Below are positions 10,469 to 64,000 of a stretch of DNA of 64,000 nt, one piece after another; position 1 is the first letter of the stretch; each line of letters opens with the position of its first letter. The translations under genes and the position numbers were made by a program. Below the pieces are notes generated by a model. That model was not told the DNA's origin. It searched no databases and was given only the letters and a program-made list of their open reading frames with translations. Source of the stretch: Candidatus Anstonellaceae archaeon (GTDB lineage Archaea > Micrarchaeota > Micrarchaeia > Anstonellales > Anstonellaceae); assembly GCA_038891055.1 (NCBI GenBank), contig JAWAEU010000001.1, positions 1,475-65,474 on the forward strand, in the 5' to 3' direction.

Positions 10469-11062
10469 ATGAGAAGGTACAGCTATGATTATAGCTCCTC
10501 GGCTTCCTATTTAGTTGGAATAATTTTTATCGTCTTTTTATTACAAATTGTACTACCAGGATTTACAAAAGAGTTTATGTTAGTTCCTACAAATTTAAAA
10601 CCTTGGCAATTAATTAGCTCGATATTTTTGCATGGGGGATTTATGCATTTATTTTTGAACCTCTATGCCTTATATTTTTTTGGTCAATATTTGGAATATC
10701 AAATAGGTACAAAAAAATTTTTATTTTTGTTTTTTTCTTGCGGACTGGCTGGAAACCTTCTCTATCTATTTACAATTTATCTTAATATTATTCCACCAAT
10801 TCCTGCACTTGGAGCATCTGGAGCTATATATGGAATATTAGGAGCATTGGCAGTTTTAAATCCAAACCTACAAATTTTATTGTTTGGTTTTATACCACTT
10901 AGAATGAAGGAGGCTGCTATCTTATGGTTTGTAATGGAATTTGTTGGTTCATTTGATGTAAGCTCTGGGATTGGTTCTGCTGCCCATTTGGGAGGTTTAG
11001 TTTTAGGCTATTTGATTGCAAAAACTAACTTTTTTAAACTACAAATGGAAAATATGTGGTAA
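10469..11062 (+). CDS. Rhomboid family intramembrane serine protease
   Basis: HGGFMHLFLN, GASGAIYG (GxSG catalytic Ser) and AAHLGGLV (catalytic His), with multiple TM segments. Confidence 0.75.
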   Translation: MRRYSYDYSSSASYLVGIIFIVFLLQIVLPGFTKEFMLVPTNLKPWQLISSIFLHGGFMHLFLNLYALYFFGQYLEYQIGTKKFLFLFFSCGLAGNLLYLFTIYLNIIPPIPALGASGAIYGILGALAVLNPNLQILLFGFIPLRMKEAAILWFVMEFVGSFDVSSGIGSAAHLGGLVLGYLIAKTNFFKLQMENMW

Positions 11063-11111
11063 AAAGTAAAAAGTAGTAAAATTTATAAATTAAAAAAAAA
11101 TAATTATAATT

Positions 11112-12284
11112 ATGAACATTAAAATAGAAAGAGTTAAGCTAAACCCTTCAGATGCAAATTGGTTTTTCAAAACAAAAATAGATTTTAAAAAAGATAAGAC
11201 AATAAGAGCAAGGTTTGATAAAAAGGAAGTTAGACCAGATGATTGGGATGAAACAAAAATTTTAGCTCAAAAATATGTATTGGTGGGAAAAAATTTAGAA
11301 AGCTTTAAGATAATTTCAAATTATGTAGAAAAAAATGAAGAAAATCCAGAAGCATTATATTATTTTTTATTATTTATTTTTCCTTTTATTAAAAATCTAA
11401 AAAGAGATTATTATCACACGATTGAGGAAATAATTGAAAGAGCCATAGAAATAGACCCTTCAAATTATAACCTTTATTTATTGAAAGCTTATTTTTATAA
11501 AAAAATTGGGGAGCGAAAAAAAATAAGAAGGATCTTTGAAGAGATTGAATCAAAGTTTTTATTAGAACCACGCGCTAATATAAAAAAAGCCCTAGAGAAG
11601 ATAGATGAAGGAAAAAAAGAGGAAGCATTAAAATATGTTTATAATATTGAGAAGCTTTATCAGCTACTTTTTTCTCAGATTTTTTGTCTTCTGAAAGATA
11701 CAATAACAAGTACAAATACTTATTCTTGGTATGACCCAAAAATAGTTATAGAAATAATGGAAGAAGAAATAAACGACAAACAACATTTTTTTATAAAAGG
11801 AATAAAATCTTCTGGATTAAATGCTGAAGATTACACAGATTTAGCAATTCAGTATATCAGAATAGATAATTATAAAAAAGCTCAAGAATATGCCCAAAGG
11901 GCTTTGGAAATTAGTGACCCAGCTAGATATGAATATAGGGCTGAAATGATAAATGTGCTAATAAGTATGGCAACTTGTAAAAATTTGCACCAATGCACTA
12001 CAGAGGATTATCTGAAAAACGTTGAAATTTTAAATAAAATAAAAATTCATCTGATGAGTAACAAAGAGATAGATTATGGAGTAGTACTTGCAAGTTTGAT
12101 AAATTCATTAAATGCAATTATAATCGGCGGGGAAAAAGATAAAAAATTAATCAAATTTTTTTTAGACTCGGCTATGGAAGATTTTTATGTTTCTCTTAAA
12201 ATTTATCCTTTTTTTGATAACTTCAATTCGATAACTAAAGCGATTACTGAAGCCCTAACAATAAAGTATGTACTTTTAGAGTGA
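11112..12284 (+). CDS. Hypothetical TPR-like protein
   Basis: 390-aa ORF with helical repeat character (…YNLYLLKAYFYKKIG…AQEYAQRALEISDP…). Confidence 0.45.
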   Translation: MNIKIERVKLNPSDANWFFKTKIDFKKDKTIRARFDKKEVRPDDWDETKILAQKYVLVGKNLESFKIISNYVEKNEENPEALYYFLLFIFPFIKNLKRDYYHTIEEIIERAIEIDPSNYNLYLLKAYFYKKIGERKKIRRIFEEIESKFLLEPRANIKKALEKIDEGKKEEALKYVYNIEKLYQLLFSQIFCLLKDTITSTNTYSWYDPKIVIEIMEEEINDKQHFFIKGIKSSGLNAEDYTDLAIQYIRIDNYKKAQEYAQRALEISDPARYEYRAEMINVLISMATCKNLHQCTTEDYLKNVEILNKIKIHLMSNKEIDYGVVLASLINSLNAIIIGGEKDKKLIKFFLDSAMEDFYVSLKIYPFFDNFNSITKAITEALTIKYVLLE

Positions 12285-25667: not shown

Positions 25668-25838
25668 AAAATTTTAAAGAAGAAAAATTTTAAAAATAGA
25701 TAATGCTGCTAAATTATCCTGTTAATTTTCTTCTAATAATTTTTAGCATTTTTTGAACTTATTGAATATTGACTAATTTGCTAAAAAAAATATTAAATTA
25801 GAATCATAAAATTAGTGTAGAATAAAAAAATTTAATAT

Positions 25839-25950
25839 GTCAGCAACAACTGGCTTTCCCGCCAGATGGCAGTAACGGCCAGTCACAAGCAGGCTTAACT
25901 TCCGAGTTCGAAATGGGATCGGGTGTTACCCTGCTCTTATGGTCGCTGAC
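25839..25950 (-). rRNA. 5S ribosomal RNA
   Basis: Reverse strand GTCAGCGACCATAAGAGCAGGGTAACACCCGATCCCATTTCGAACTCGGAAGTTAAGCCTGCTTGTGACTGG…GTTGCTGAC contains the conserved CCGAUCCCAUUUCGAACUCGGAAGUUAAGC block, with terminal helix GUCAGC/GCUGAC. GC-rich island. A TATA-like element (TTTATATAA) lies ~25 nt upstream. Confidence 0.8.
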
Positions 25951-49752: not shown

Positions 49753-49849
49753 ATTTAAAAAAGTACCAAAAAATCGACAAAATCTATTTGAAAAGATAGA
49801 ATTTGGGTGAAGATATTCCGACAAACTAGATTTTAGCTAGGTGTGGTAT

Positions 49850-52740
49850 TTTGGTTTAGTAGCAGCAGGCTACACCGCTCGCTTTTGGCTTGCGGCTTAC
49901 ACCTCTGCCCTATCAAACGGATCTGCTATCCGCCCATTAGCCTGACTCGTTTTGAGAGCTGCTTCGACCTTAGATGCTTTCAGGTCTTATCAGCTAGCGC
50001 GTAGCTGCCCGGCGATGCTATTACACAACCGGTACACCAGAGGCGCCGTACCCGTGTTCCTCTCGTACTCATGGGTACTTACTCTCAGTCAGGCAGCACT
50101 TCCAGGAGATACTACCGTACTGTCTCGCGACGTACTGAACCCAGCTCATGTAGGACTTTAATGGATGAACAACCCAACCCTTGGTGGCTCCTACACCACC
50201 AGGATGTCCTAAGCCGACAGCGATGTACCAAACCGCGGGGTCGATGTGTACTCTCGCCCGCGACGAGCCTGTTACCCCCGGGGTAGCTTGTCTGACAGCT
50301 TGGAGCCCCATCAAAAGGCTACCAAGGTTCGTTAAGCCCGGCTTTCGCCTCTGCTCTCCACGCTGTTAGGAGAACAGTCAGCCCAGCATATGTCTTTAAC
50401 CCTTAACAGTGCATTTCTGACGCACCTAAGCTGAGCATTGGGCACCCTTGTTTATTTATCGAGGGTGTACCGCCCCAGCCAAACTATCCACCTGATGCTG
50501 TCTACCCTCTAGGAGTATAAGCAGTACAAGGCAACTAAAATGGTGTTACATCGTCGCCTATCTAATGCCCGAAAGCATTAGCTTAGCGGCTCCCATTTAC
50601 TCTATGTTAGCCACCCTATACCACAACATCAGGCTATAGTAAAGCTCCACGGGGTCTTCGTTTCCCCCTGGAAGTCCACTGCATACTCACAGTGTAGTAG
50701 GTTCACCAGGTCCTGGCATGGGACAGTGGGAGAGTCGTTACGCCCTTCATGCAAGCCACCAATTAAGCGGCGAGGTATTACGCTACCTCAAGAGGGTCAG
50801 AGTTACCCCCGCTCTTTGCCGGCGCTTAGGCCCGTTGTAACAGGCTTTCACGTACCGGTAGTGAGCAGGCGTCACCCGCAATACTAACCGTTTCCGGTTT
50901 GCTGCGAGTTGTGTTTTTGATAAACAGTCGCTCTCCCCTTGTCACTGCGACCTGCTGATGCTTAAAACAACAGCAGGCACCGCTTCTCCCTAAGTTACGC
51001 GGCGAATTTGCCGAGTTCCCTATGCCAAGTTATCCTGCCACGCCTTGGCTTGTTCAGCCAGCAGCACCTGTATTAGTTCTAGGTACGGTTAGCCAAGATC
51101 GCTTTTTACTCTCTTTTCATGGGACCCAGGAATTGGGCAACTTGCGCATTCCTAAGGTTATACCATTTCTCCTGACAATCAGACTCCATGGTATTGCCTT
51201 AGTTAGACAGCCGAAGCTGCTTGCCCTATCCCAAGCCGTCGAGAGTAAAACTTGCGTTACCGCATCTACTTGGCTAGGACCGGAATATTAACCGGTTTCC
51301 CTTTCGCATAGTGGGAATTACCCCTATGCTTAGGACCGCCTAACTCTAGGCTGACGAACATCTCCTAGAAAACCGTGTGCTATGCGGCGTCCAGGATTTT
51401 CACCTGGATATGCTGTTACTAATACCAGGATATTCATAACTGGTCGGTCCATAGGAGCTTACGCCCCTACTTCTATCCAACCAGCTCGCCCCCCTACCAG
51501 CCTTGCACCCATAGAGGTGCAAGCTCTAGGGTATCGGTACTGGGCTTAGTCCCGAGCCTCTTTGAAGATTATACTCTAGACTGGTCCGCTATTACGCGTT
51601 GTTTAAAGGATGGCTGCTTCTAAGCCTACCTTCCAGCTGTTTTTGAGTATAACCTTCTTTGCGATTGACACTTAGCCCAGATTTAGGGACCTTAACCCTA
51701 GGTACGGTCGTTCCCGTAACGGCCTGCTAGCTTACCCAGCAGAACCCGACTCCCTGCTTCTTCGGCGAGTATAGATTCGAGGTTTGACGATCAGGTGAGG
51801 CCTTTCGACCCCGTTCCTGATAATCAGTGCCCTACCCTACACTCTACCTCCGCAGAGGCTATACTGAGATATACTTCGAGGGGAACCCGCTATTGCCGAG
51901 TTCGATTGGACTATCACCCCTACCCGTGGGTCACCCAAGCAGAATATACTAGCACTGGTTGCGGTCCTCCATCCACCTTCAGGTGGACTTCGACCTGCCC
52001 ACGCGTAGATCACATCGGCTTCGGGTCTGAAGGGAGTGACTGCTCGCCATTTCTGACGAGGGGGTAAACCCAACTTGCTTTCGCTTCGGCTCTCGCCTTG
52101 CCACGCCCTTCAACTCCCTGGCCCTTGCTTCGAGAAGGACGATATGACAGTGGGACTGTTCTATCGCGCTTAGCTTCACAGCTAAGCACTTTTAGAACAG
52201 TTATCCTTTCCTGCCATATCAAACTGTAGCCACTTAGTTTCAAGTTCTTTTCACCCCCCGTTTTGGGGAACTTTTCAGCTTTCCCTCGCGGTACTAGTGC
52301 GCTATCGGTCTTGGGTTATATTTAGCATTGGAAGTTGATACTCCCAAATTCACGCCACATACTCAAGTGACGCTACTCTTAAATGGCCTCTTGCCATATT
52401 CTGTCCGCACACGGGGCTATCACCCTCTATGGCTCAGCTTTCCAGCTGATTGTGCTCCAGAACATGGCTAAGTAGCCCCCTACATCTCCAGTCAGTTACC
52501 TGACTTGGATTTAGGGACGTGCTCTTTGGCTTTCACTCACCGTTACTCACCAAATCCCATTTTGGTTTCTCTTCCTGCCGGTACTAAAATGTTTTAATTC
52601 CCGGCGTGAGTTGCCCATCACAGGGACAAGGCCAGACCCCAGGATCGCAGGATTCATGCTCCTCCCCTGGGCTTATCCCAGCTTGACAGGTGGCCATTTC
52701 TACCCAAGCCAAGCTATCCACTAAGTGGCATAACAGCATA
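49850..52740 (-). rRNA. 23S ribosomal RNA (about 2.87 kb; ends approximate)
   Basis: Sharp GC-rich island. The reverse strand contains the sarcin-ricin loop AGUACGAGAGGAAC, domain V GGGGAUAACAGGCU and the 5' domain …CACUUAGUGGAUAGCUUGGCUUGG…GAUAAGCCCAGGGGAGG. It is flanked by a long inverted repeat (49805-49829 vs 52758-52798) typical of archaeal pre-rRNA processing stems. The track ORFs inside it are artefacts. Confidence 0.85.
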
Positions 52741-53030
52741 CCACACCTATTTGCTCTCTAGTTTGTCACTGCAAATGCAATTGGAACTATCTTCACCCAA
52801 TGCCATTGCCAAAAATTGGCAATGGTGAGGCAAAGCCTCTTGCTCTTGGCAGCTGCCAAGATGCAAAAAATACACTAATCTATATGTAAGATAAAATGCA
52901 TCGCAACCAACTTTTTAACAAGCATAGTTGGTGCTGATGTCAGCCTAAAATGGCTGAATTTTAAGTAGAAATAAATATATACCAACAAATATATAAATCT
53001 TTTGGTTGAAAATCTAAACTAATCTATAAA

Positions 53031-54050
53031 CTAATTCGATTTGATGGAAAATTGGTAGCTAATTTGCTCATCAGAAGGAGCAACATAAGAATAGGTTATA
53101 TTTTTTAAAATTCCACTATAATGCATACAGGGATAAAAGAAAGGCGATTCGCAAGAACTCGAACCAAATGAAAGCCAACCTCCAGAATTTGAATAAGTAG
53201 AAATACTATTTACCTCTTCTTCCAAAATTTTTTCTCCATCGAAGAAGAATTTTATAATATTTGCTTTTTTTACAAATACCAAGCTGTGAAAGTTGGTGGT
53301 ATCTACCAAATAAACTTTTTCAATAGAATTCTCACCATCACTAATTGAGATGAATAATTCGTTATCCCCATTAACATATGCCCCAATTTTACTTTGCCCA
53401 TATGGCTCAAAATAGCAAAATATTGTACCTAAATCGTTTGTATCTACAATATTTGGCTTGAAAAATAAACTTAAAAAAAATTCTTCTGAATTTAGTGAAA
53501 AATCAGAATAAAATACTGCCATATCTTTTTCAAATTTTGGATAAGAAAAAAACCACCAATTAAAGGTGTTTTTAACATTTTTTATATTTTTAGGAGTAAA
53601 GGTAGTAGTAGTTTTCTGATGAGCAAGAATAGACTGCTGGAGAGATTTAGAAGAATTTTGCTCCACGGTCAAATTAGATTGATTAGTGGTATTTTCTTGG
53701 AATTGGTTGGCACTTGAATTCAAAATCTCATTAGTATTATTAGTAAACTCAGTAGTATTATTAGTAAAATTAGAAATATTTGAATCAGAGGCCGAGGTAG
53801 AATTTTGGGTCGAATTTTCTAAAATTTGATTATCGGATAGAGAGGTAGAATTTAGATCTTCAGAATCATTTGCTAAATTTTCTTCATTACTTTCAGTAGT
53901 AAAATTAGCAACACTTTGATTAGTTTGATTAGAATTATCACTCAAATTAAAGTCTTGAGTAGTGTTTATTTCTTGCATAAAACAAATAGGAATAACTAAA
54001 ACAAAAATGAACAGCAAAAAAAAATTATTCATACAAAATATTAAAAACAA
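53031..54050 (-). CDS. Secreted surface protein with N/S/T-rich glycosylation region and C-terminal lectin-like (ConA/LamG-like) beta domain
   Basis: Signal/TM MFLIFCMNNFFLLFIFVLVIPICF, ~150 aa of Asn/Ser/Thr low-complexity sequence dense in NxT/S, then a beta-rich C-terminal domain. Confidence 0.5.
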   Translation of the reverse strand: MFLIFCMNNFFLLFIFVLVIPICFMQEINTTQDFNLSDNSNQTNQSVANFTTESNEENLANDSEDLNSTSLSDNQILENSTQNSTSASDSNISNFTNNTTEFTNNTNEILNSSANQFQENTTNQSNLTVEQNSSKSLQQSILAHQKTTTTFTPKNIKNVKNTFNWWFFSYPKFEKDMAVFYSDFSLNSEEFFLSLFFKPNIVDTNDLGTIFCYFEPYGQSKIGAYVNGDNELFISISDGENSIEKVYLVDTTNFHSLVFVKKANIIKFFFDGEKILEEEVNSISTYSNSGGWLSFGSSSCESPFFYPCMHYSGILKNITYSYVAPSDEQISYQFSIKSN

Positions 54051-54056
54051 AAAATT

Positions 54057-54860
54057 TTAAAACCCGATATATTTAAAAATTTTATCAAAGATAGACCTAA
54101 AATCTGGCCTTTTGAATGAAAATAAATTTCCCTGTAATTTACAGCCACCTATTTTTGCTGCAAATTTTTTTAATTGCACTGAAGATTTGGAATTTGGATA
54201 TGCTAATAAAACTGGCATTTTCTCTGCAATCGCTCGTGGAATATTTTGGTCTTCTGGAATTTGTGCGATTATCTTGTCTTCTAAAATTTGCTCTATTTCT
54301 GGGGTTTTTAACTCATAGGATTGGCCTGAAACTCTATTTAGCACATATAAAATTTGCTGGTCTTTTACTTTAAGTTTTTTGATAATCGAAGCAATTTTTA
54401 GAGCAGCGGACACAGATGGGATATCTGGAGTCATTACAACAACTACTATGTTGGAAGCTTCTAGAGCTTCTCTTACTTCTCTTGGAAGGCCTGGGGGGCA
54501 ATCCAAAAAACAACAATTATAGCTCTGAGAGTGAAGAACTCTAAATAATTTTGATAGGGAGGGAAGTTTTAGTTTTTTACTCAAACCATCTTCGGTAATG
54601 GATGGGAATAAACATCTCAAACCAGTAGGAGGATGAATTATTAAAGATTCTTCTAATGTCGCCTTGTTTTTTAAAAAAGAGGAGAGGCCAACATAACTGT
54701 GGGTTAAACCCAGATGAAAGGCTACTGAAGGATTATAAAAATCTAAATCAGCAATTAAACATTGGTTTTTTGCTAGAGCAGCATATATTGCTAAATTAGT
54801 TGCAATAGTTGTTTTTCCAACACCACCCTTACCAGAAACAAAGGAGATCATATGCTTCAT
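54057..54860 (-). CDS. MinD/ParA-family P-loop ATPase
   Basis: Deviant Walker A SGKGGVGKTTIATNLA and Walker B-region LIADLDF. 267 aa. Confidence 0.8.
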   Translation of the reverse strand: MKHMISFVSGKGGVGKTTIATNLAIYAALAKNQCLIADLDFYNPSVAFHLGLTHSYVGLSSFLKNKATLEESLIIHPPTGLRCLFPSITEDGLSKKLKLPSLSKLFRVLHSQSYNCCFLDCPPGLPREVREALEASNIVVVVMTPDIPSVSAALKIASIIKKLKVKDQQILYVLNRVSGQSYELKTPEIEQILEDKIIAQIPEDQNIPRAIAEKMPVLLAYPNSKSSVQLKKFAAKIGGCKLQGNLFSFKRPDFRSIFDKIFKYIGF

Positions 54861-54925
54861 AAAATAAATAACAAAAAAGATTATTTAAAACTTTCATTTT
54901 TAAATTTTTTGTTAAAAAATATATA

Positions 54926-55249
54926 TTGAAAAATTTATTGATGGAGAATATGAAAAAAATACTTGTGATATTTTTGATTTTGTTTATAAATGGGTGTATA
55001 ACTCCCTATAAAAATCCAGATTATATATGCGCTTGTATAGTTAAGCATGAAAATCCAGCCACTCAACAAATTGATGAGTCTTATGCAGGCACTATAGGTG
55101 GAAAAACTCCGCAGGAGGTTTTACAAAAGTGTAATGAAACTGCAAAAAACTCCTATTCTCAAATTTTAGAAATTAAATGCGATACTTTGAGCTGGAGCGA
55201 GTGGAATAAAAAAATTGAAAAAGAAAGGGAGATTAGAAAGGGTTCTTAA
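54926..55249 (+). CDS. Hypothetical small secreted/lipoprotein-like protein
   Basis: Signal peptide with lipobox-like FINGC; 6 Cys in 107 aa. Confidence 0.4.
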   Translation: MKNLLMENMKKILVIFLILFINGCITPYKNPDYICACIVKHENPATQQIDESYAGTIGGKTPQEVLQKCNETAKNSYSQILEIKCDTLSWSEWNKKIEKEREIRKGS

Positions 55250-55317
55250 AATTTTAAGCCTAAATTTTGAGTATATTTAAAAAATAACTTAATAAATTTA
55301 AAGAAGATAAAATATTT

Positions 55318-55950
55318 ATGAATATTTTAAATAGGCTGTTTTTATTGAGTTTTATTTTGTTAAGTGGAATTAGCTTTTCTCAACTAAAGGTTGAACTAAT
55401 AACTCCACAAAATGGACTTTATACAAACCCTGGCCCAATTAGTTTTATTTTCAATACTACAAATACCACTAGTTTAGAAGAATTGGAAGATAAAATTGAT
55501 CCAAAAAATTTAACTTGTTATTTAGTATTACAAATTGGAAATAGATATTTAAAGCAAGGCCCACTAAATTTGCCCTTAGGAGAAAAAGGAGAATTTGAAT
55601 ACAAAAGTTTTCCTCCAAATACATATATTTGGTCAGTGCAGTGCAATGGATTTTCTTCCGAATATAGAGTTTTAATAGTCCAAAACCAAAGTTTTGAGGA
55701 ATTTGTGGAACAACTAAAAACAAATAAAACAAATACTACAGCTAACAAATCAGAGAGAGAGGTAGAAAATAAAGCTCAAACAGAAAATAAAACAAACGAC
55801 CAAGACTACTCAACCCTAAGACAAAATCAAAATCAGCTGATTTTTTATTTTTTAGTTGGTTTAATTTTTTTAATAGTGTTAATTTACTTTATTGTAAACT
55901 CTCGACAAAAGCAAAAAAATCAACAAAAAAATGACAAAGAAAAAAATTAG
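55318..55950 (+). CDS. Hypothetical surface protein (signal peptide, C-terminal TM)
   Basis: MNILNRLFLLSFILLSGISFS, sequon-rich, with C-terminal TM LIFYFLVGLIFLIVLIYFIV. Confidence 0.45.
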   Translation: MNILNRLFLLSFILLSGISFSQLKVELITPQNGLYTNPGPISFIFNTTNTTSLEELEDKIDPKNLTCYLVLQIGNRYLKQGPLNLPLGEKGEFEYKSFPPNTYIWSVQCNGFSSEYRVLIVQNQSFEEFVEQLKTNKTNTTANKSEREVENKAQTENKTNDQDYSTLRQNQNQLIFYFLVGLIFLIVLIYFIVNSRQKQKNQQKNDKEKN

Positions 55951-56006
55951 ACATACAAAAATCTTTTTTAGGCAAATTAATATAAAATTTATATTAAAAT
56001 TAAATA

Positions 56007-58142
56007 TTGATGAGAAAATTATTCGTCTTAATTTTTTTTATTTTAATTATTGAAAATTTTTTTTCTTATTATAGTGTAGGAGATCCAGTAGTTGTTTATG
56101 CATCCACTAGTGGTACTTGTGGAATAAATTGCCCAAAGATAAGATTTTGGAATAGCACATCTAACACTTGGGGCCAAGAAATTGAGCTTGGGCCAGATTT
56201 GGAATTACAGAGTACTGGGGCAGCTATAAGAGAAGCCAGAGTATATATTTCTCCAAATAATCAAAAAATTTTAGTAGTCACTCAAAATGATAATGGGGAA
56301 ATAGATCTCTATGCCAGTTGGGACGCTATTAAATGGTTTCAGACCAGAAATCTAACAAAGCTTTGGACAAGTTCGCCTACCGTTCATTATAGAGGCTTTG
56401 ATTTGGCTTATGAATATAAAACAAATAATGCTATTTTGGCTTTTAGTGTAGTAAATACCTCTACTACTTGCGATGTTGGATATTATATAATACCAGCATC
56501 CAGCCTTGAAGTTAATGGTAGTTATGGCTGTATTGATGACACTACCGTATCAACTGATATTACTTCCAGGTTTGTAAGAGCAGAGGCAAAACCAAATTAC
56601 TCTTCTAGAGAAATAGTAATTGCAACAACAGAAACATCTGAAGATGACGTTAATGCATGGGTTTGGAATGGAAGTGCATGGGGAAATCAAATGGAAGTAG
56701 CAAATTCAGCAACTGCTACAGGAGACTATGAAGCGATGGATATTAAATATTCTGCAGATAATGGCAGTATTTTGATGTTTGTGGCAGGAGATGGGACTGC
56801 TGGAAATGTAAATTATGCTATTTGGAATGGAAGTAGCTGGAGCACTCCTGGTAGTTTTGATATTGACACCTCGGATTTAAATGATGTAAGATGGTTGAGA
56901 CTTGCCCCCAAACCACTCACAGCTAACTTTAGCCTAATCTCAATAGATTCTGGGTCTGATTTGGCTTATTGGTATTGGAATGGCTCTGCTTGGGGGAATA
57001 ATGTTTCAAATGTAGATGCTGCAATAGATATTGCAACCACAAGATGTGGAGATATTGCTTGGGTAAATAACTCTGTTGGCTACTTGATATGGGATACTGA
57101 TACTACAGGAACTACACTTAGTAGAAGAAATATGAGTTCAACTGGAGCACTATCTGCTGCAAGTACATTTTCAACATATGCTGGGACAGGTGCATGGCTA
57201 GATCTCTATCCAAATCCAAATCAGACACATAGGATTAAAATTTTAGGGATTAGAATGAATAACGCCTTTTCTTTAGGAAGTTTTTATTTTAATGGTACTC
57301 CTCAAACCTTTATTAATTTAGGAGATAGCTCTCTAACTACCAATACCACTGCCTCAACTACTGGCAAAAGATTTGGGGCTGATTTTTTTAAAGTTATAGA
57401 TACAGTAGGGCCAACAATAGGAACTACACAGGTAAATACGACTTCTGTCCCTGCTAATCAAAATATTTGTGTTTATGTAAATGCTACAGATCAACTGAGC
57501 GTACCTGTTAGAATAATCGAAGTTTATGTGATTTATCCAAATGGAACAGGGAGGTGGGAAACTCTCTCAGATCTTGGATGTAATGCTGGATCTTATGATG
57601 ATGGTTGGTTTGGGGCTACAATAAACGTAGGTTCAGTTCCAGGAAATCTAACTATTAATACAACCAGAGCATATGATGCCTTTTGGAATTCAAATTCTAC
57701 ATATCCCGACATAAGAGTAGAGGTTACACTTAATTTAATAGTAGACATTTCAATCTCTGCATCTACTCTTAGTTTTGGTTCCCTTGATCCTGGAACAAAC
57801 GACAATCCTGCCTCAGAAAATCCAATAACTCTAACAAACACTCCAAACAGCAATACTGCTGTGGATGTGTACTTTAGTAATACAAATATGACTACTGGAG
57901 TATATTATATGCCTGCTAATGCTCTATCAATAAACACAGTAAATAATGCTGCAACATCTACAAATTTCAATGGTTCAACTTATATCAATGGAACAGGAGC
58001 AAACCAAGGTTATATTGAAAATTTAGCAATAAATAATAATGTAAATCTTTATTTCTGGCATGATGTGCCAAGTGGGCAGAATGCAGGAACATATACTGCC
58101 ACTGTGACAATTCATGCAGTAGCAGATGGAATAACTCCATAA
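56007..58142 (+). CDS. Secreted 711-aa repeat protein (recurring W-N-G-S-(A/S)-W motif; possible beta-propeller)
   Basis: Signal peptide MMRKLFVLIFFILIIENFFS. Repeats WVWNGSAWGNQ / AIWNGSSWSTPG / YWYWNGSAWGNN. No TM anchor. Confidence 0.5.
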   Translation: MMRKLFVLIFFILIIENFFSYYSVGDPVVVYASTSGTCGINCPKIRFWNSTSNTWGQEIELGPDLELQSTGAAIREARVYISPNNQKILVVTQNDNGEIDLYASWDAIKWFQTRNLTKLWTSSPTVHYRGFDLAYEYKTNNAILAFSVVNTSTTCDVGYYIIPASSLEVNGSYGCIDDTTVSTDITSRFVRAEAKPNYSSREIVIATTETSEDDVNAWVWNGSAWGNQMEVANSATATGDYEAMDIKYSADNGSILMFVAGDGTAGNVNYAIWNGSSWSTPGSFDIDTSDLNDVRWLRLAPKPLTANFSLISIDSGSDLAYWYWNGSAWGNNVSNVDAAIDIATTRCGDIAWVNNSVGYLIWDTDTTGTTLSRRNMSSTGALSAASTFSTYAGTGAWLDLYPNPNQTHRIKILGIRMNNAFSLGSFYFNGTPQTFINLGDSSLTTNTTASTTGKRFGADFFKVIDTVGPTIGTTQVNTTSVPANQNICVYVNATDQLSVPVRIIEVYVIYPNGTGRWETLSDLGCNAGSYDDGWFGATINVGSVPGNLTINTTRAYDAFWNSNSTYPDIRVEVTLNLIVDISISASTLSFGSLDPGTNDNPASENPITLTNTPNSNTAVDVYFSNTNMTTGVYYMPANALSINTVNNAATSTNFNGSTYINGTGANQGYIENLAINNNVNLYFWHDVPSGQNAGTYTATVTIHAVADGITP

Positions 58143-58183
58143 GTTCCAAAACATTTAAAAATATAAAATTCTAAGTTAAGGAT

Positions 58184-58987
58184 ATGACCAGCATAAAGTA
58201 CAAATTAAATTTAAGCACTTTTTTTTTATTTTTTTTATTATTTTTTTATCAGTTTTATCAGGCTTTTGCCCAAAGTCCTAGGCCAATGTATGACTTTGGA
58301 TCGATGCAACAAGGAAAAACTTTTAGTGCTGAGCCTGGGGAAACCATAAATCTAAGCTTGTTTTTTTTCGTAGATAAGGAATATGGAAATAGAATAACTC
58401 ATGTTAGTTTAGATGTAAGCGAAAAACCAGAAGGATGGGATATACAACTAATCCCCCCTAAACATAAAGAATTGGTAAATGTAAGTGGAATTTTGGTTGA
58501 ATCTGAAGAAAATATTTATGTAGAACCAAGAGAGATTCTGCCTCAAAAACCACAAGTAGCTGAAGAAGGAATAAGCTATATTTTATCTCCCTCAGGTAAG
58601 GGATATTTGCAAGCAAAAGAAGTTAAGATAGTGGTAAAGGTACCACCAAATGCAAAACTTGGACAGACATATCCACTAAAAATTTCTGCTGAGGCATTTT
58701 GGTTTGGATCTGAAGGAAATATAGCTCTAAGACAGAGCAGAACATTTAGATATGAGATAAAAGTAGTTAGAAAAGAATTTAGTGAAGAGATTGTAAAACA
58801 AAAACCGCCAGTAGAGCAAGAGGAAAAACAAACCTCACCACAGTTTGATTACTACCTAATAGCAACAGTAGTTATTGTAATAGTTCTGTTAGTGTTTGCT
58901 GCATATAAAATATTTTTCTCAAAAAGCAGCAAAGAGAAAAAAACAACAACAATACAAAAAACTAAGAAGAAAAATAAGAAAAAATAA
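58184..58987 (+). CDS. Surface protein (signal peptide, beta domain, C-terminal TM + K-rich tail)
   Basis: Hydrophobic N-terminus (LSTFFLFFLLFFYQFYQAFA) and C-terminal TM YYLIATVVIVIVLLVFAAY followed by KKTTTIQKTKKKNKKK. Confidence 0.5.
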   Translation: MTSIKYKLNLSTFFLFFLLFFYQFYQAFAQSPRPMYDFGSMQQGKTFSAEPGETINLSLFFFVDKEYGNRITHVSLDVSEKPEGWDIQLIPPKHKELVNVSGILVESEENIYVEPREILPQKPQVAEEGISYILSPSGKGYLQAKEVKIVVKVPPNAKLGQTYPLKISAEAFWFGSEGNIALRQSRTFRYEIKVVRKEFSEEIVKQKPPVEQEEKQTSPQFDYYLIATVVIVIVLLVFAAYKIFFSKSSKEKKTTTIQKTKKKNKKK

Positions 58988-59028
58988 AAGGTAGTAAAAG
59001 TGGATAAAAAAAATTTAGGTGAAAAATC

Positions 59029-60816
59029 TTGCAAAAAACCTTTTTATTTATTTTTTTATTTGTTTTTTTTAGTTTTATTCATTTAACTTTTTGCCCACCA
59101 GTAGAACAACAAAATTTTGTTTTGAATGCTTTTTTAGAAGTTTTGGAAAAATCAAATATTATAATTAAAAATTTTTCTCTCAGTCAAACTAAAATTTATA
59201 TTGATAGCCAAGAGCCAGTTGAATTTTATATTCAAATTCAAAATATTGGAAATAAAATAGAAACTATTTCGTCTAAAATCGACATTTATTATTATTACAA
59301 CCATAGCTATGTAAAAACCATAGAGATAGAAAACAGTAGTTTGATAGGCGGAGAAGAAGAAATAAAAGTAGTTAATTTTGAGTATGGAGATTTGCAAGAA
59401 GCAAAATATAGTGCTACTTTAACTATAACTTATGGGGGAACAACAAAAAACTCTACCATAGATTTTGAAGCTGTTAGAAGGCAACAGCAAAACATACAAA
59501 GAGAGGAGGTAAGCGGAGGAAGTGGAGGCGGAGAAATAAAGGTGAGATATAGCCCAACCGTCCCAAAAATAGAGCAAAAAAGTACTATTTTTACACAAGG
59601 TATTGGTCTTTTAAAAAATACTTATTTTAGCCAAGTATACCAAAACGAAAGAGGCTACTTTATACTTACAATAGAAAACCAAAACTTAGAAGAAAAAATA
59701 ATTAAAATAAAATACCCCCAAACTGATGAATTTATTTTTAGTGGTCCAAAAGAAATTGTAGTTGAACCTAAAAGTAATTTGACTATTTTAGTAGGGTTTG
59801 AACCAAAGGAAGCAAAAAAAGAAGGTTATTATGTATTTGATATTGGCTTAGAAGTTGAAAATAGTAGTACAATACAAACATATGCTATAAATTTACTTAA
59901 GGCAGAACAAAAACCAATTTTAATAAAAAGAAATATTGTCATAGATAGGGCAACAAATCAAACAATAGTTTATTTAGAGCTAAAAAATCAACTAAATACA
60001 AAGATTTCTTATTTGGAAATATACGAAAGAGTACCAACTAAATTGTTTGAAAAAATCGAACAGGGGGGTTATAGTGGAAAAAATAGTGTTTTTCCAGCCA
60101 CTCTGTGGTTTGGAATAAAAGATATCTATCCACAAGAATCTCAAATAATAAGTTATAAAATAAATACACTTCTAAGCGATTTGGAGGATTGCACTAAATT
60201 TTCTGTGATGCAAGTTTCCATCTATCAGCCTTCTCAAAAAACTTCTATTTATAGTAGTTTGGAAAAAATAATTTTTAGTCAAACAAAAAATTTGATATTT
60301 AGAGAGGCTGGTAGCCAAACTCTAACTTTTGAACTTCTTAACAACGATTTAAAACAAAAATTAATAGAAATAACAATTAAACTTCCTACTGGTTGGACAA
60401 CAAACAACCCAAAATTAAAAATTTTTCTAGAGCCAAGAAAAAAAACTACTCTGGAAGTGCTGATTTTTAGCCCACAAAAATTAGAGACAGGACAGTATAT
60501 AGGTAATATAGAGATAAGCAGCGAGGATGAAAAAAAAGAAAAAGAATTTGTGATAAATGTAGAGAGCGGATTGTCTGGTCAACAAGTTATTCAATACATC
60601 TACATTCAAAAGCCCCTTGAGCTATACTTAGAGGAAATAAAGGAAAAAATAGTTATTATGAAAGACGCAATATTTTTCCTCACTACCATTAGCTTATTTG
60701 TTTTAATTTATATAATATTGCACAAAAAACAAAAAGAAACAGAATTTGCTGCTATTTCGTACAGTGAGCTTGAAAAATTAAAAGAGAGTATAAAAAGAGA
60801 GATAAGACTACCATAA
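59029..60816 (+). CDS. Surface protein, 595 aa (signal peptide, repeated beta domains, C-terminal TM)
   Basis: MQKTFLFIFLFVFFSFIHLTFC and a C-terminal TM (FFLTTISLFVLIYIIL). Domain style resembles 58184-58987 and 19868-21346. Confidence 0.5.
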   Translation: MQKTFLFIFLFVFFSFIHLTFCPPVEQQNFVLNAFLEVLEKSNIIIKNFSLSQTKIYIDSQEPVEFYIQIQNIGNKIETISSKIDIYYYYNHSYVKTIEIENSSLIGGEEEIKVVNFEYGDLQEAKYSATLTITYGGTTKNSTIDFEAVRRQQQNIQREEVSGGSGGGEIKVRYSPTVPKIEQKSTIFTQGIGLLKNTYFSQVYQNERGYFILTIENQNLEEKIIKIKYPQTDEFIFSGPKEIVVEPKSNLTILVGFEPKEAKKEGYYVFDIGLEVENSSTIQTYAINLLKAEQKPILIKRNIVIDRATNQTIVYLELKNQLNTKISYLEIYERVPTKLFEKIEQGGYSGKNSVFPATLWFGIKDIYPQESQIISYKINTLLSDLEDCTKFSVMQVSIYQPSQKTSIYSSLEKIIFSQTKNLIFREAGSQTLTFELLNNDLKQKLIEITIKLPTGWTTNNPKLKIFLEPRKKTTLEVLIFSPQKLETGQYIGNIEISSEDEKKEKEFVINVESGLSGQQVIQYIYIQKPLELYLEEIKEKIVIMKDAIFFLTTISLFVLIYIILHKKQKETEFAAISYSELEKLKESIKREIRLP

Positions 60817-61001
60817 AAATAATACCAAAAAATTTAAATATCTTTGTATACAAAATATAATGCACTAATACTTAGAATATTTTTTCTAAGATGGGATTTG
60901 GGCTTCTGCTCAAATCGACTTAGAGCACTCTTTGGAGTTCAAATGGGGACAGAAAAGAGTGGTGCAAAACCAAATCTTAGTCGGCCAAAATACCAGCAGT
61001 G

Positions 61002-62528
<1,527 letters not shown>

Positions 62529-62717
62529 AAGCTTTGGAGATGTTTGTGCAAGGCCTTTTTCTGTCCTTGGAATAAATCCAAAGAGTGCTCTGCTTTATCT
62601 ATTTTTGATAAAAAGTCGCGCATCTCCCCTGAACCATGCCAAAAAATCGATGAGTTGCAATTTTTTAAGATAACTTTAAATACTTTTCCGTCGTAAATAA
62701 TATGTAAAAAATTCACG

Positions 62718-63093
62718 GTTAAAAAAGACCTATAGTAGGATTGTGACTTGGGGGGTATATTCTACACCCTCACGGTACCAACCGTTAAAAAAGACCTATA
62801 GTAGGATTGTGACCTCAGAAATGATAGCATAATACTTCAAATATTGAAATAAGTTAAAAAAGACCTATAGTAGGATTGTGACTATGGCCTATACTGGAAG
62901 GCTACAAGATCCCGATACCAAGTTAAAAAAGACCTATAGTAGGATTGTGACCCCAATATCCTCCACCCCCTGTTAGTTTCATTTTTTTCAGTTAAAAAAG
63001 ACCTATAGTAGGATTGTGACGCTAAGAAATTGTGATGCATGGTTATATTTTTTCATAAATTCAGTTAAAAAAGACCTATAGTAGGATTGTTAG
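62718..63093 (+). CRISPR. CRISPR array with 6 repeats and 5 spacers; 30-nt repeat GTTAAAAAAGACCTATAGTAGGATTGTGAC
   Basis: Repeats begin at 62718, 62784, 62853, 62922, 62991 and 63064. Spacers are 36, 39, 39, 39 and 43 nt, all unique. The last repeat is degenerate at its 3' end (…GATTGTTAG), so the AT-rich leader is on the 16S-proximal side (62591-62717). Confidence 0.9.
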
Positions 63094-63150
63094 CTAGAGG
63101 ATAGGCTAAGGCTTTTTCAATAAAAAACTCTGAATTAAGAAAAAGTTAAT

Positions 63151-63759
63151 TTATAAAGCAGCTAATTTTCCAGCATCTGTTAGTTTTACACCATCATCTA
63201 AAACTAAAAAATCTCTTTTTTTTAGTTCATCGATTATTTTGTATAACATTGGGGTTGAGAGGTTTAATTTTTTTGCTAAATCTTTTACTGAAACTTCCTT
63301 TCCTTCTAATTTAGATAGTTCTACTAATGTTTGTTTTTCAGAAGTAGAGAGATAAAAAGAGAGTTTTGGTAAATATAAAATAGAATTATCCTCTTCTTTT
63401 ACATACAAAATCTTTTTTATCCTCTCAATTCTTGCATAACAACCAAATAAAAGACCAAGTGCTTTTGTTTTTCTTGCTGCACTTACATTTGCATAAATTT
63501 CCCAATCCTTTGGCTGAGAATCTATTACTTCTACTACTTTTTTAGCAGTATCAACTACATCATATTGTTTTACAAAATATTCCTCAATTTTTATAACTGA
63601 AGAAAGAACACTTTTTAGTGTTTTTAGAGAGTCTTTTAATTTTGCATCTGGTGTTTCATCTATTAATAAAATTAGTTTATCTGGACCAAGCTTAGTTACA
63701 CTAACCATAACTGGTTCATATTTATATAAGGTGGCAATTAGAACTTTTTTTCTGTCCAT
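63151..63759 (-). CDS. Csa3-like CRISPR-associated regulator (CARF domain + C-terminal winged HTH)
   Basis: N-terminus KVLIATLYKYEPVMVSVTKLGPDKLILLIDETP resembles the Csa3/CARF Rossmann start (…VTLGFDEKF…). C-terminus …LVELSKLEGKEVSVKDLAKKLNLSTPMLYKIIDELKKRDFLVLDDG is a MarR-like wHTH. Lies 57 nt from the distal end of the array. Confidence 0.45.
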   Translation of the reverse strand: MDRKKVLIATLYKYEPVMVSVTKLGPDKLILLIDETPDAKLKDSLKTLKSVLSSVIKIEEYFVKQYDVVDTAKKVVEVIDSQPKDWEIYANVSAARKTKALGLLFGCYARIERIKKILYVKEEDNSILYLPKLSFYLSTSEKQTLVELSKLEGKEVSVKDLAKKLNLSTPMLYKIIDELKKRDFLVLDDGVKLTDAGKLAAL

Positions 63760-64000
63760 ATAAAAAACTCACTTTTTTCAATATAAATTATACAAAAAAA
63801 TATTTAAATGATTTGGATAAATTTTGTTTTTATAAAAATATAAAAAAATTAAATAAAAAGTAGAAAAGTAAAAATTGATATAAAAGCTTACGAAAAAATA
63901 GATTTATAAATTTTTTTGATAAAATTATAAATAAATAGAATGAAACAAAAAAAATAAGGATTGAAAAAAATGTTTGTAAGGTATAAATTAATGTTCAAGA

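Follow-up and report, generated by a model that had tools for sequence, protein, structure and literature searches.

The stretch of DNA analysed here (the window) is 64,000 nucleotides long, and near its end it carries a complete archaeal 16S rRNA gene (61002-62529, + strand), which scored 1431.6 bits against Rfam SSU_rRNA_archaea in a scan of the 64-kb window. The gene is followed on the same strand by a CRISPR array and then, on the opposite strand, by a gene for a Csa3-like regulator. A sequence-only reading of this DNA had proposed an array of 6 repeats downstream of a stand-alone 16S gene in the same orientation, and this was confirmed, with the array at 62718-63093. The features of the region are listed below; loci from other contigs that were compared with the window carry L numbers.

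60833-60840, + strand: TATA-like octamer TTTAAATA before the 16S gene, the presumed 16S promoter
60922-60936, + strand: 5′ strand of the 16S processing stem, from co-folding of the flanks
62577-62591, + strand: 3′ strand of the 16S processing stem, from co-folding of the flanks
62602-62606, + strand: T5 tract read from the sequence, the likely terminator of the 16S unit
62610-62717, + strand: CRISPR leader, a 108-nt module that is near-identical in L001, L002 and L004
62661-62666, + strand: T6 tract of the leader, 9 nt ahead of its TATA-like box, a possible insulator against read-through
62675-62682, + strand: leader TATA-like box TTTAAATA, located 35 nt ahead of repeat 1
62718-63093, + strand: CRISPR array with six 30-nt repeats, of which the last is degenerate, and five spacers of 36-43 nt
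63113-63117, + strand: T5 tract of the trailer, where the pre-crRNA probably ends, in a convergent terminator zone with the Csa3-like gene
63151-63759, - strand: Csa3-like regulator (CARF3 group) with CARF and winged-helix domains, 202 aa, from PADLOC and Pfam
63760-63969, no strand assigned: divergent promoter region that separates the Csa3-like gene from the ORF at 63970, within which the identity to sister strains ends
63970-64000, + strand: start of an ORF (MFVRYKLMFK...) that runs off the window, at the position of cas6 in the sister strains

The 23S gene was located with Rfam at 49837-52745 (- strand), 8 kb upstream of the 16S gene and on the opposite strand, and the 5S gene at 25838-25950 (- strand); the RNase P RNA gene was also found within the window by Rfam. 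The 16S, 23S and 5S genes are unlinked and occupy three separate sites in the window. Folding of both flanks of the 16S gene together paired 60922-60936 with 62577-62591 as a processing stem (z = -6.2), in agreement with the end of this stem at 62590 given by the sequence-only reading. TATA-like boxes are located upstream of the 16S and of the 23S gene, and oligo-T tracts are located 3′ of all three rRNA genes (T7 for 5S, two T6 for 23S, and the T5 after the stem for 16S). Termination at oligo-T is established in archaea.

Among DPANN archaea, unlinked rRNA genes prevail, whether or not CRISPR is present (PMC8997704). Because the rRNA genes are unlinked in this lineage, a stand-alone 16S gene is normal and needs no special explanation. 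The window resembles the unlinked layouts of DPANN and Thermoplasmatales in having 16S, 23S and 5S at three separate places, and its sole oddity is a CRISPR array as the downstream neighbour of the 16S gene.

The 16S gene also carries a 32-nt insertion, CATGCTGTGCATGCACCAGCATAGCACGGTAA, at 61485-61516, which is present in L001 as well. The insertion is located in the universally conserved 530-loop, between GTGCCAGCCGC and GCGGTAATAC, the 515F primer site, and has a predicted hairpin fold (z = -5.1). A mini-intron and an expansion segment are both candidate explanations, and the insertion would defeat standard 515F amplicon primers. The region between the 23S and 16S genes (53031-60816) encodes large Asn/Thr-rich proteins of 339, 210, 711, 267 and 595 aa that are predicted to be secreted or membrane proteins; the top Pfam families from the scan of the whole window included none of them. 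These proteins are conserved in sister strains and may be surface proteins of an episymbiont.

The CRISPR array and its spacers

The repeat, GTTAAAAAAGACCTATAGTAGGATTGTGAC, starts at 62718, 62784, 62853, 62922, 62991 and 63064. Repeats 1-5 are identical, and repeat 6 is altered at 2 of its last 3 bases (..TTAG); the five spacers are 36, 39, 39, 39 and 43 nt long, in that order. The locus was assigned as a CRISPR array because it has the near-identical direct repeats (three or more, 23-47 nt long) and the unique, similarly sized spacers that define one. When a 21-nt core of the repeat was searched with up to 3 mismatches, it gave 6 matches in the window and 0 in 100 shuffles, and no second array was found elsewhere in the 64-kb window. 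The repeat is largely unstructured (-1.9 kcal/mol). Classification of the repeat, which the sequence-only reading had put forward as a check, returned no Rfam family above threshold: among the CRISPR-DR families the best match was CRISPR-DR8, at 22.1 bits versus a gathering score of 39 and on the opposite strand, and this sub-threshold match was not used as orientation evidence. The 21-mer of the repeat was found in GTDB representative genomes in L001 only, and had no match in JGI metagenomes or IMG/VR.

The array lies about 125 nt after the 16S stem, in the same orientation. That it is co-linear with the 16S gene had been proposed from its distal degenerate repeat, and this orientation is further supported by the conserved leader at the proximal end and by the 3′ end of the repeat, ATTGTGAC, which resembles the usual ATTGAAAC/G tag.

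The G + C contents of spacers 1-5 are 0.53, 0.23, 0.46, 0.41 and 0.26, which reproduces the 41-53% reported for spacers 1, 3 and 4 by the sequence-only reading. Among the non-rRNA 38-mers of the window (mean 0.30, sd 0.089), the frequency of a G + C content of at least 0.53 is 0.005, of at least 0.46 is 0.04 and of at least 0.41 is 0.12. The earlier suggestion that all three spacers came from a replicon of different G + C content can therefore be kept for spacer 1, which is clearly atypical for the genome (P = 0.005), and mildly for spacer 3 (P = 0.04), but not for spacer 4 (P = 0.12). Sister-strain spacers range from 0.10 to 0.43. The spacers had no self-target in the window or in the loci compared with it. 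A search against viruses had also been advised, and no protospacer emerged: nothing significant was found in INPHARED phages for the window spacers and 17 sister spacers, and exact 22-mers of spacers 1, 3 and 4 were absent from IMG/VR; PLSDB plasmids likewise gave none. The idea that spacer 1 may target a foreign replicon of higher G + C content stands.

The leader and the neighbouring 16S unit

With the TATA-to-start distance that is usual in archaea, the pre-crRNA is predicted to begin near 62704, some 14 nt ahead of repeat 1. The octamer TTTAAATA shows no overall excess in the window (28 copies versus 29 expected), and non-coding DNA, 12% of the window, has 12 of the 28 copies, a concentration of about 3.5-fold; one of them precedes the 16S gene. 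The octamer would thus fit as the TATA box of this organism. A scan for sigma-70 promoters and hairpin terminators was set aside, as it relies on a bacterial consensus and the host is archaeal.

The leader is not confined to the vicinity of the 16S gene. In L010 the same 108-nt leader follows cas2 and runs into the first 19 nt of the repeat, where the contig ends, and the second array (array 2) is known only from this leader and these 19 nt. The 37 nt that follow cas2 in L002 and L003 correspond to the start of the leader, with one base different from leader 1. As both leaders of L002 are located on one 881-kb contig and are one base apart, they represent a true duplication instead of an assembly loop. 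The leader copies after cas2 have no 16S gene nearby. In the window, the duplicated leader unit begins directly after the 16S stem and T5 tract, and the T5 and T6 tracts both lie between this stem and the TATA-like box of the leader. Since the leader module carries its own TATA-like box, the array could be transcribed by itself. Transcripts reading through from the 16S promoter would need to cross both T tracts, and nothing requires such read-through; the two tracts need not terminate fully, however, and some 16S read-through into the array may occur.

Comparison of strains revealed that the window, L001, L002, L004 and L006 share the same repeat and degenerate terminal repeat, with flanks 95-99% identical, while none of the 26 spacers over these five strains is shared. 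The array is thus turning over and evolving, and the complete turnover of spacers argues against a dead or orphan array. The junction of 16S gene, leader and array was found in two independent assemblies, L001 and L002, and is therefore not an assembly artefact. Two sister contigs end inside the array or leader, and three more end within 35 nt past the terminal repeat. The adjacency of 16S gene and array was seen in three near-identical strains (window, L001 and L002). In L009, a Micrarchaeota MAG with a Csa3 that is 73% identical, cas6 and the Csa3-like gene have the same divergent arrangement, and Rpr2 and ribosomal-protein genes follow the Csa3-like gene in place of the array and 16S gene. 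The adjacency is a feature of one species-level group. No paper was found in the literature on a CRISPR array directly downstream of a 16S gene, nor one detailing type III systems in Micrarchaeota.

The sequence-only reading had suggested that the array is driven by the rRNA promoter. Functional coupling of this kind, in which much of the pre-crRNA would come from 16S-promoter read-through and boost the supply of crRNA in a small genome, is compatible with the shared strand, the 125 nt between processing stem and repeat 1, and the retention of the junction in three strains, as well as with the short T5 and T6 being all that lies between, a bacterial-type scan having found no strong hairpin terminator in this archaeal host. 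We nevertheless consider it unlikely: the leader owns a TATA-like box and occurs after cas2 without any 16S gene, the T5 and T6 tracts match those 3′ of the 5S and 23S genes, the adjacency is absent from L009 although its Csa3 is 73% identical, and the three junction strains are so nearly identical that retention says little about selection. Equally doubtful is an adaptive placement of the leader behind the 16S terminator, whereby leaky read-through would give this genome-reduced symbiont a constitutive floor of pre-crRNA on top of a regulated leader promoter. Transcription from the leader's own promoter remains the preferred reading.

The Csa3-like gene and the cas operon of sister strains

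The Csa3-like regulator noted beside the array by the sequence-only reading was supported by both PADLOC and Pfam. Full-length PADLOC matching was strongest to PDLC01849 (CARF3; 5e-64), followed by CasR (1e-21) and Csa3 (3e-10). Pfam identified HFX_2341_N (2.4e-10) at residues 11-121, and several wHTH families at residues 137-190, all of them below Pfam cut-offs. PADLOC and Pfam together place a CARF domain at the N-terminus and a winged helix at the C-terminus of the protein. It is identical to MEM4360575.1 of a Candidatus Anstonellaceae MAG (class Micrarchaeia, DPANN), which NCBI names Csa3, and its sister-strain copies on public contigs are 1-2 residues off the window copy.

The window protein shares its two-domain layout and size with Csa3a and Csa3b of Sulfolobus type I-A systems and, judging from the sister loci, is likewise encoded divergently from the cas operon. 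It differs from them in its weak match to the Csa3 model proper (3e-10, against 5e-64 for the CARF3 model) and in its partner, since Sulfolobus Csa3a/b occur with type I-A and the near-identical sister-strain copies of the window protein with type III-A. Linkage of the Csa3-like gene to CRISPR-cas was present in the sister loci and L009. In contrast, 80 metagenome loci (L014-L093) with homologues 48-57% identical had no array, rRNA gene or match to the ten sister-locus Cas proteins within flanks of up to 10 kb per side; such homologues are abundant on DPANN-type contigs, 29 of the loci are at least 8 kb long, and the survey probes the Csa3 family and not 16S adjacency. Thus the family, although named 'CRISPR-associated Csa3' in databases, seems mostly not to be CRISPR-linked outside Micrarchaeia. 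A 23-nt direct repeat with 83% identity was also found in this region, with one copy at the 3′ end of the Csa3-like gene (63135-63157, TTAAGAAAAAGTTAATTTATAAA) and the other between that gene and the cas6 position (63888-63910, TTACGAAAAAATAGATTTATAAA). It could be a putative regulator binding site or a chance similarity in AT-rich DNA.

No cas gene was detected among the 51 ORFs of at least 90 aa in the window by PADLOC and Pfam, and tblastn of the ten Cas proteins of a sister locus against the window gave no match, as expected from the sequence-only reading, which had seen none and had supposed that cas genes might lie just past position 64000. This supposition was borne out in the sister contigs, with type III-A genes and cas1-cas2; for the window strain it would follow from synteny. 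In L002 (881-kb contig JAVZBV010000001.1, GCA_038874715.1), the 16S gene, leader, same-repeat array and Csa3-like gene are arranged as in the window, and beyond the Csa3-like gene, in divergent orientation, are cas6, a gene for a CARF protein, cas10, csm2, csm3, csm4, csm5, csx1, cas1 and cas2. The full operon through cas2 was present in L002, L003 and L004/L010, and the short contigs L005-L007 (= L011-L013) extend no further than cas6 and one to three ORFs after it. PADLOC identified the sister proteins as Cas6 (8e-54), Cas10 (2e-100), Csm2 (2e-11), Csm3 (1e-45), Csm4 (1e-22), Csm5 (5e-30), Csx1/CARF-HEPN (2e-31), Cas1 (1e-117) and Cas2 (7e-29), and in NCBI these MAGs, some with names suggestive of hot-spring samples, already have proteins annotated as Cas. 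The HD motif of the L010 Cas10 is at residue 13 and its GGDD motif at residue 668. The gene set of Cas10 and Csm2-5 is found beside the array in L002, L003 and L010, and the window ends before this position. Judged by these models and motifs, the sister locus is a complete type III-A system with an adaptation module.

The window is near-identical to all sisters up to 63917 and unrelated to them from 63918 (the last ~82 nt). This break is intergenic, 52 nt before the ORF at 63970, whose ten visible residues bear a loose likeness to Cas6 N-termini (MRLLIKLKSK). Among the best 120 homologues of the sister proteins, none was a Cas6 or Cas1 from the contig bearing MEM4360575.1, the presumed source of the window. 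From synteny, the cas operon of the window strain would start at about 63970-64000, with a cassette that may be divergent or different, and the break suggests a different cas6 allele or a swapped cas cassette. The ~11-kb cassette between the two identical leaders might conceivably be exchanged among strains by recombination, which would explain the abrupt loss of similarity at 63918. In L010 (JAVZXR010000014.1), positions 1-97, comprising leader and repeat start, are identical to 11031-11127; these identical ends are attributed to an assembly cycle, because two identical leaders flank the ~11-kb cassette. The cas1 gene is split into two overlapping ORFs in L010 and intact in L002.

An orphan or trans-served array had also been considered by the sequence-only reading. 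Loss or replacement of the cas cassette in this strain, which would leave the array as a remnant or served in trans, could account for the departure from sister similarity just before the cas6 position and for the missing close Cas6 and Cas1 of the MEM4360575.1-bearing contig among the best 120 homologues, and cas1 is indeed split in a sister, L010. Such decay is nonetheless quite improbable. Five perfect repeats and five strain-unique spacers suggest that spacers were acquired recently, the ORF from 63970 runs in the direction expected, and every sister contig that extends past the Csa3-like gene keeps at least cas6, the long ones having the whole operon; sister synteny and complete spacer turnover both speak against an orphan or trans-served array. 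Insertion of the CRISPR locus into a former 16S-23S operon, which would have unlinked the genes and replaced the internal spacer, a replacement that the sequence-only reading had offered as an alternative, would explain why the array occupies the place of the spacer tRNA and 23S gene of a linked operon but can be dismissed almost entirely. The 23S and 5S genes stand apart from the 16S gene, and the 23S gene, encoded on the other strand 8 kb upstream, is equipped with a TATA-like box and oligo-T tracts. The processing stem of the 16S gene is complete in itself, the array is not between the 16S and 23S genes of one unit, and unlinked rRNA genes prevail across DPANN with or without CRISPR (PMC8997704).

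Comparison with type III-A systems and proposed function of the locus

We conclude with good confidence that 62718-63093 is one array of a type III-A (Csm) locus in an Anstonellaceae genome, that it has a putative leader promoter of its own, and that the 16S gene is an incidental neighbour. The sister loci share with the type III-A Csm systems of Staphylococcus epidermidis, Streptococcus thermophilus and Methanocaldococcus/Thermococcus the genes cas6, cas10 (HD, GGDD), csm2-5, a csx1/csm6-type CARF-HEPN gene, cas1 and cas2. The 30-nt, largely unstructured repeat, ending in ATTGTGAC, near the usual 8-nt tag, and the spacers of 36-43 nt are also similar to those of known systems. The differences are a leader of identical sequence on both sides of the sister cas operon, a Csa3-like CARF-wHTH gene between array 1 and cas6, a sister Cas1 closest to I-B-type models in PADLOC, and an array 1 that abuts a 16S rRNA gene. 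The composition of the locus is familiar for type III-A, and the double leader, the position of the Csa3-like gene and the upstream 16S gene are minor variations.

The following scheme is built on sequence and on knowledge of type III-A systems, and we infer the promoter, the terminator and the Cas6 cleavage site from sequence features. The locus would be ordered as in the sisters: 16S gene, leader 1, array 1, the Csa3-like gene on the opposite strand, cas6 through cas2, leader 2 and the beginning of another array. The 16S unit would end with its processing stem and T5, with the leader module starting directly after it. Firstly, transcription would begin about 14 nt ahead of repeat 1, at the TATA-type promoter that the leader provides. 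Cas6 would then cut 8 nt from the 3′ end of the repeat, giving crRNAs with the 5′ tag AUUGUGAC. These crRNAs would be loaded into the Csm complex, and binding of target RNA would trigger DNA cleavage and cyclic-oligoadenylate synthesis, both of which are proposed for Cas10 because its HD and GGDD motifs are both present. Csx1, a CARF-HEPN protein, and the second CARF protein would sense the signal, and so might the Csa3-like CARF-wHTH regulator. Lastly, Cas1-Cas2 would insert new spacers at the leader end.

The apparent lack of cas genes would thus be due to the position of the window's end, and a 16S gene that stands alone is usual in DPANN. Metagenome assemblies break at arrays and at 16S genes alike, and the layout described here, once known, helps to link cas contigs to the 16S marker in this lineage. 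Micrarchaeia are very small episymbiotic archaea, and what the sister loci show is a complete type III-A system with an adaptation module that is evolving in them, its spacers fully turned over between near-identical strains.
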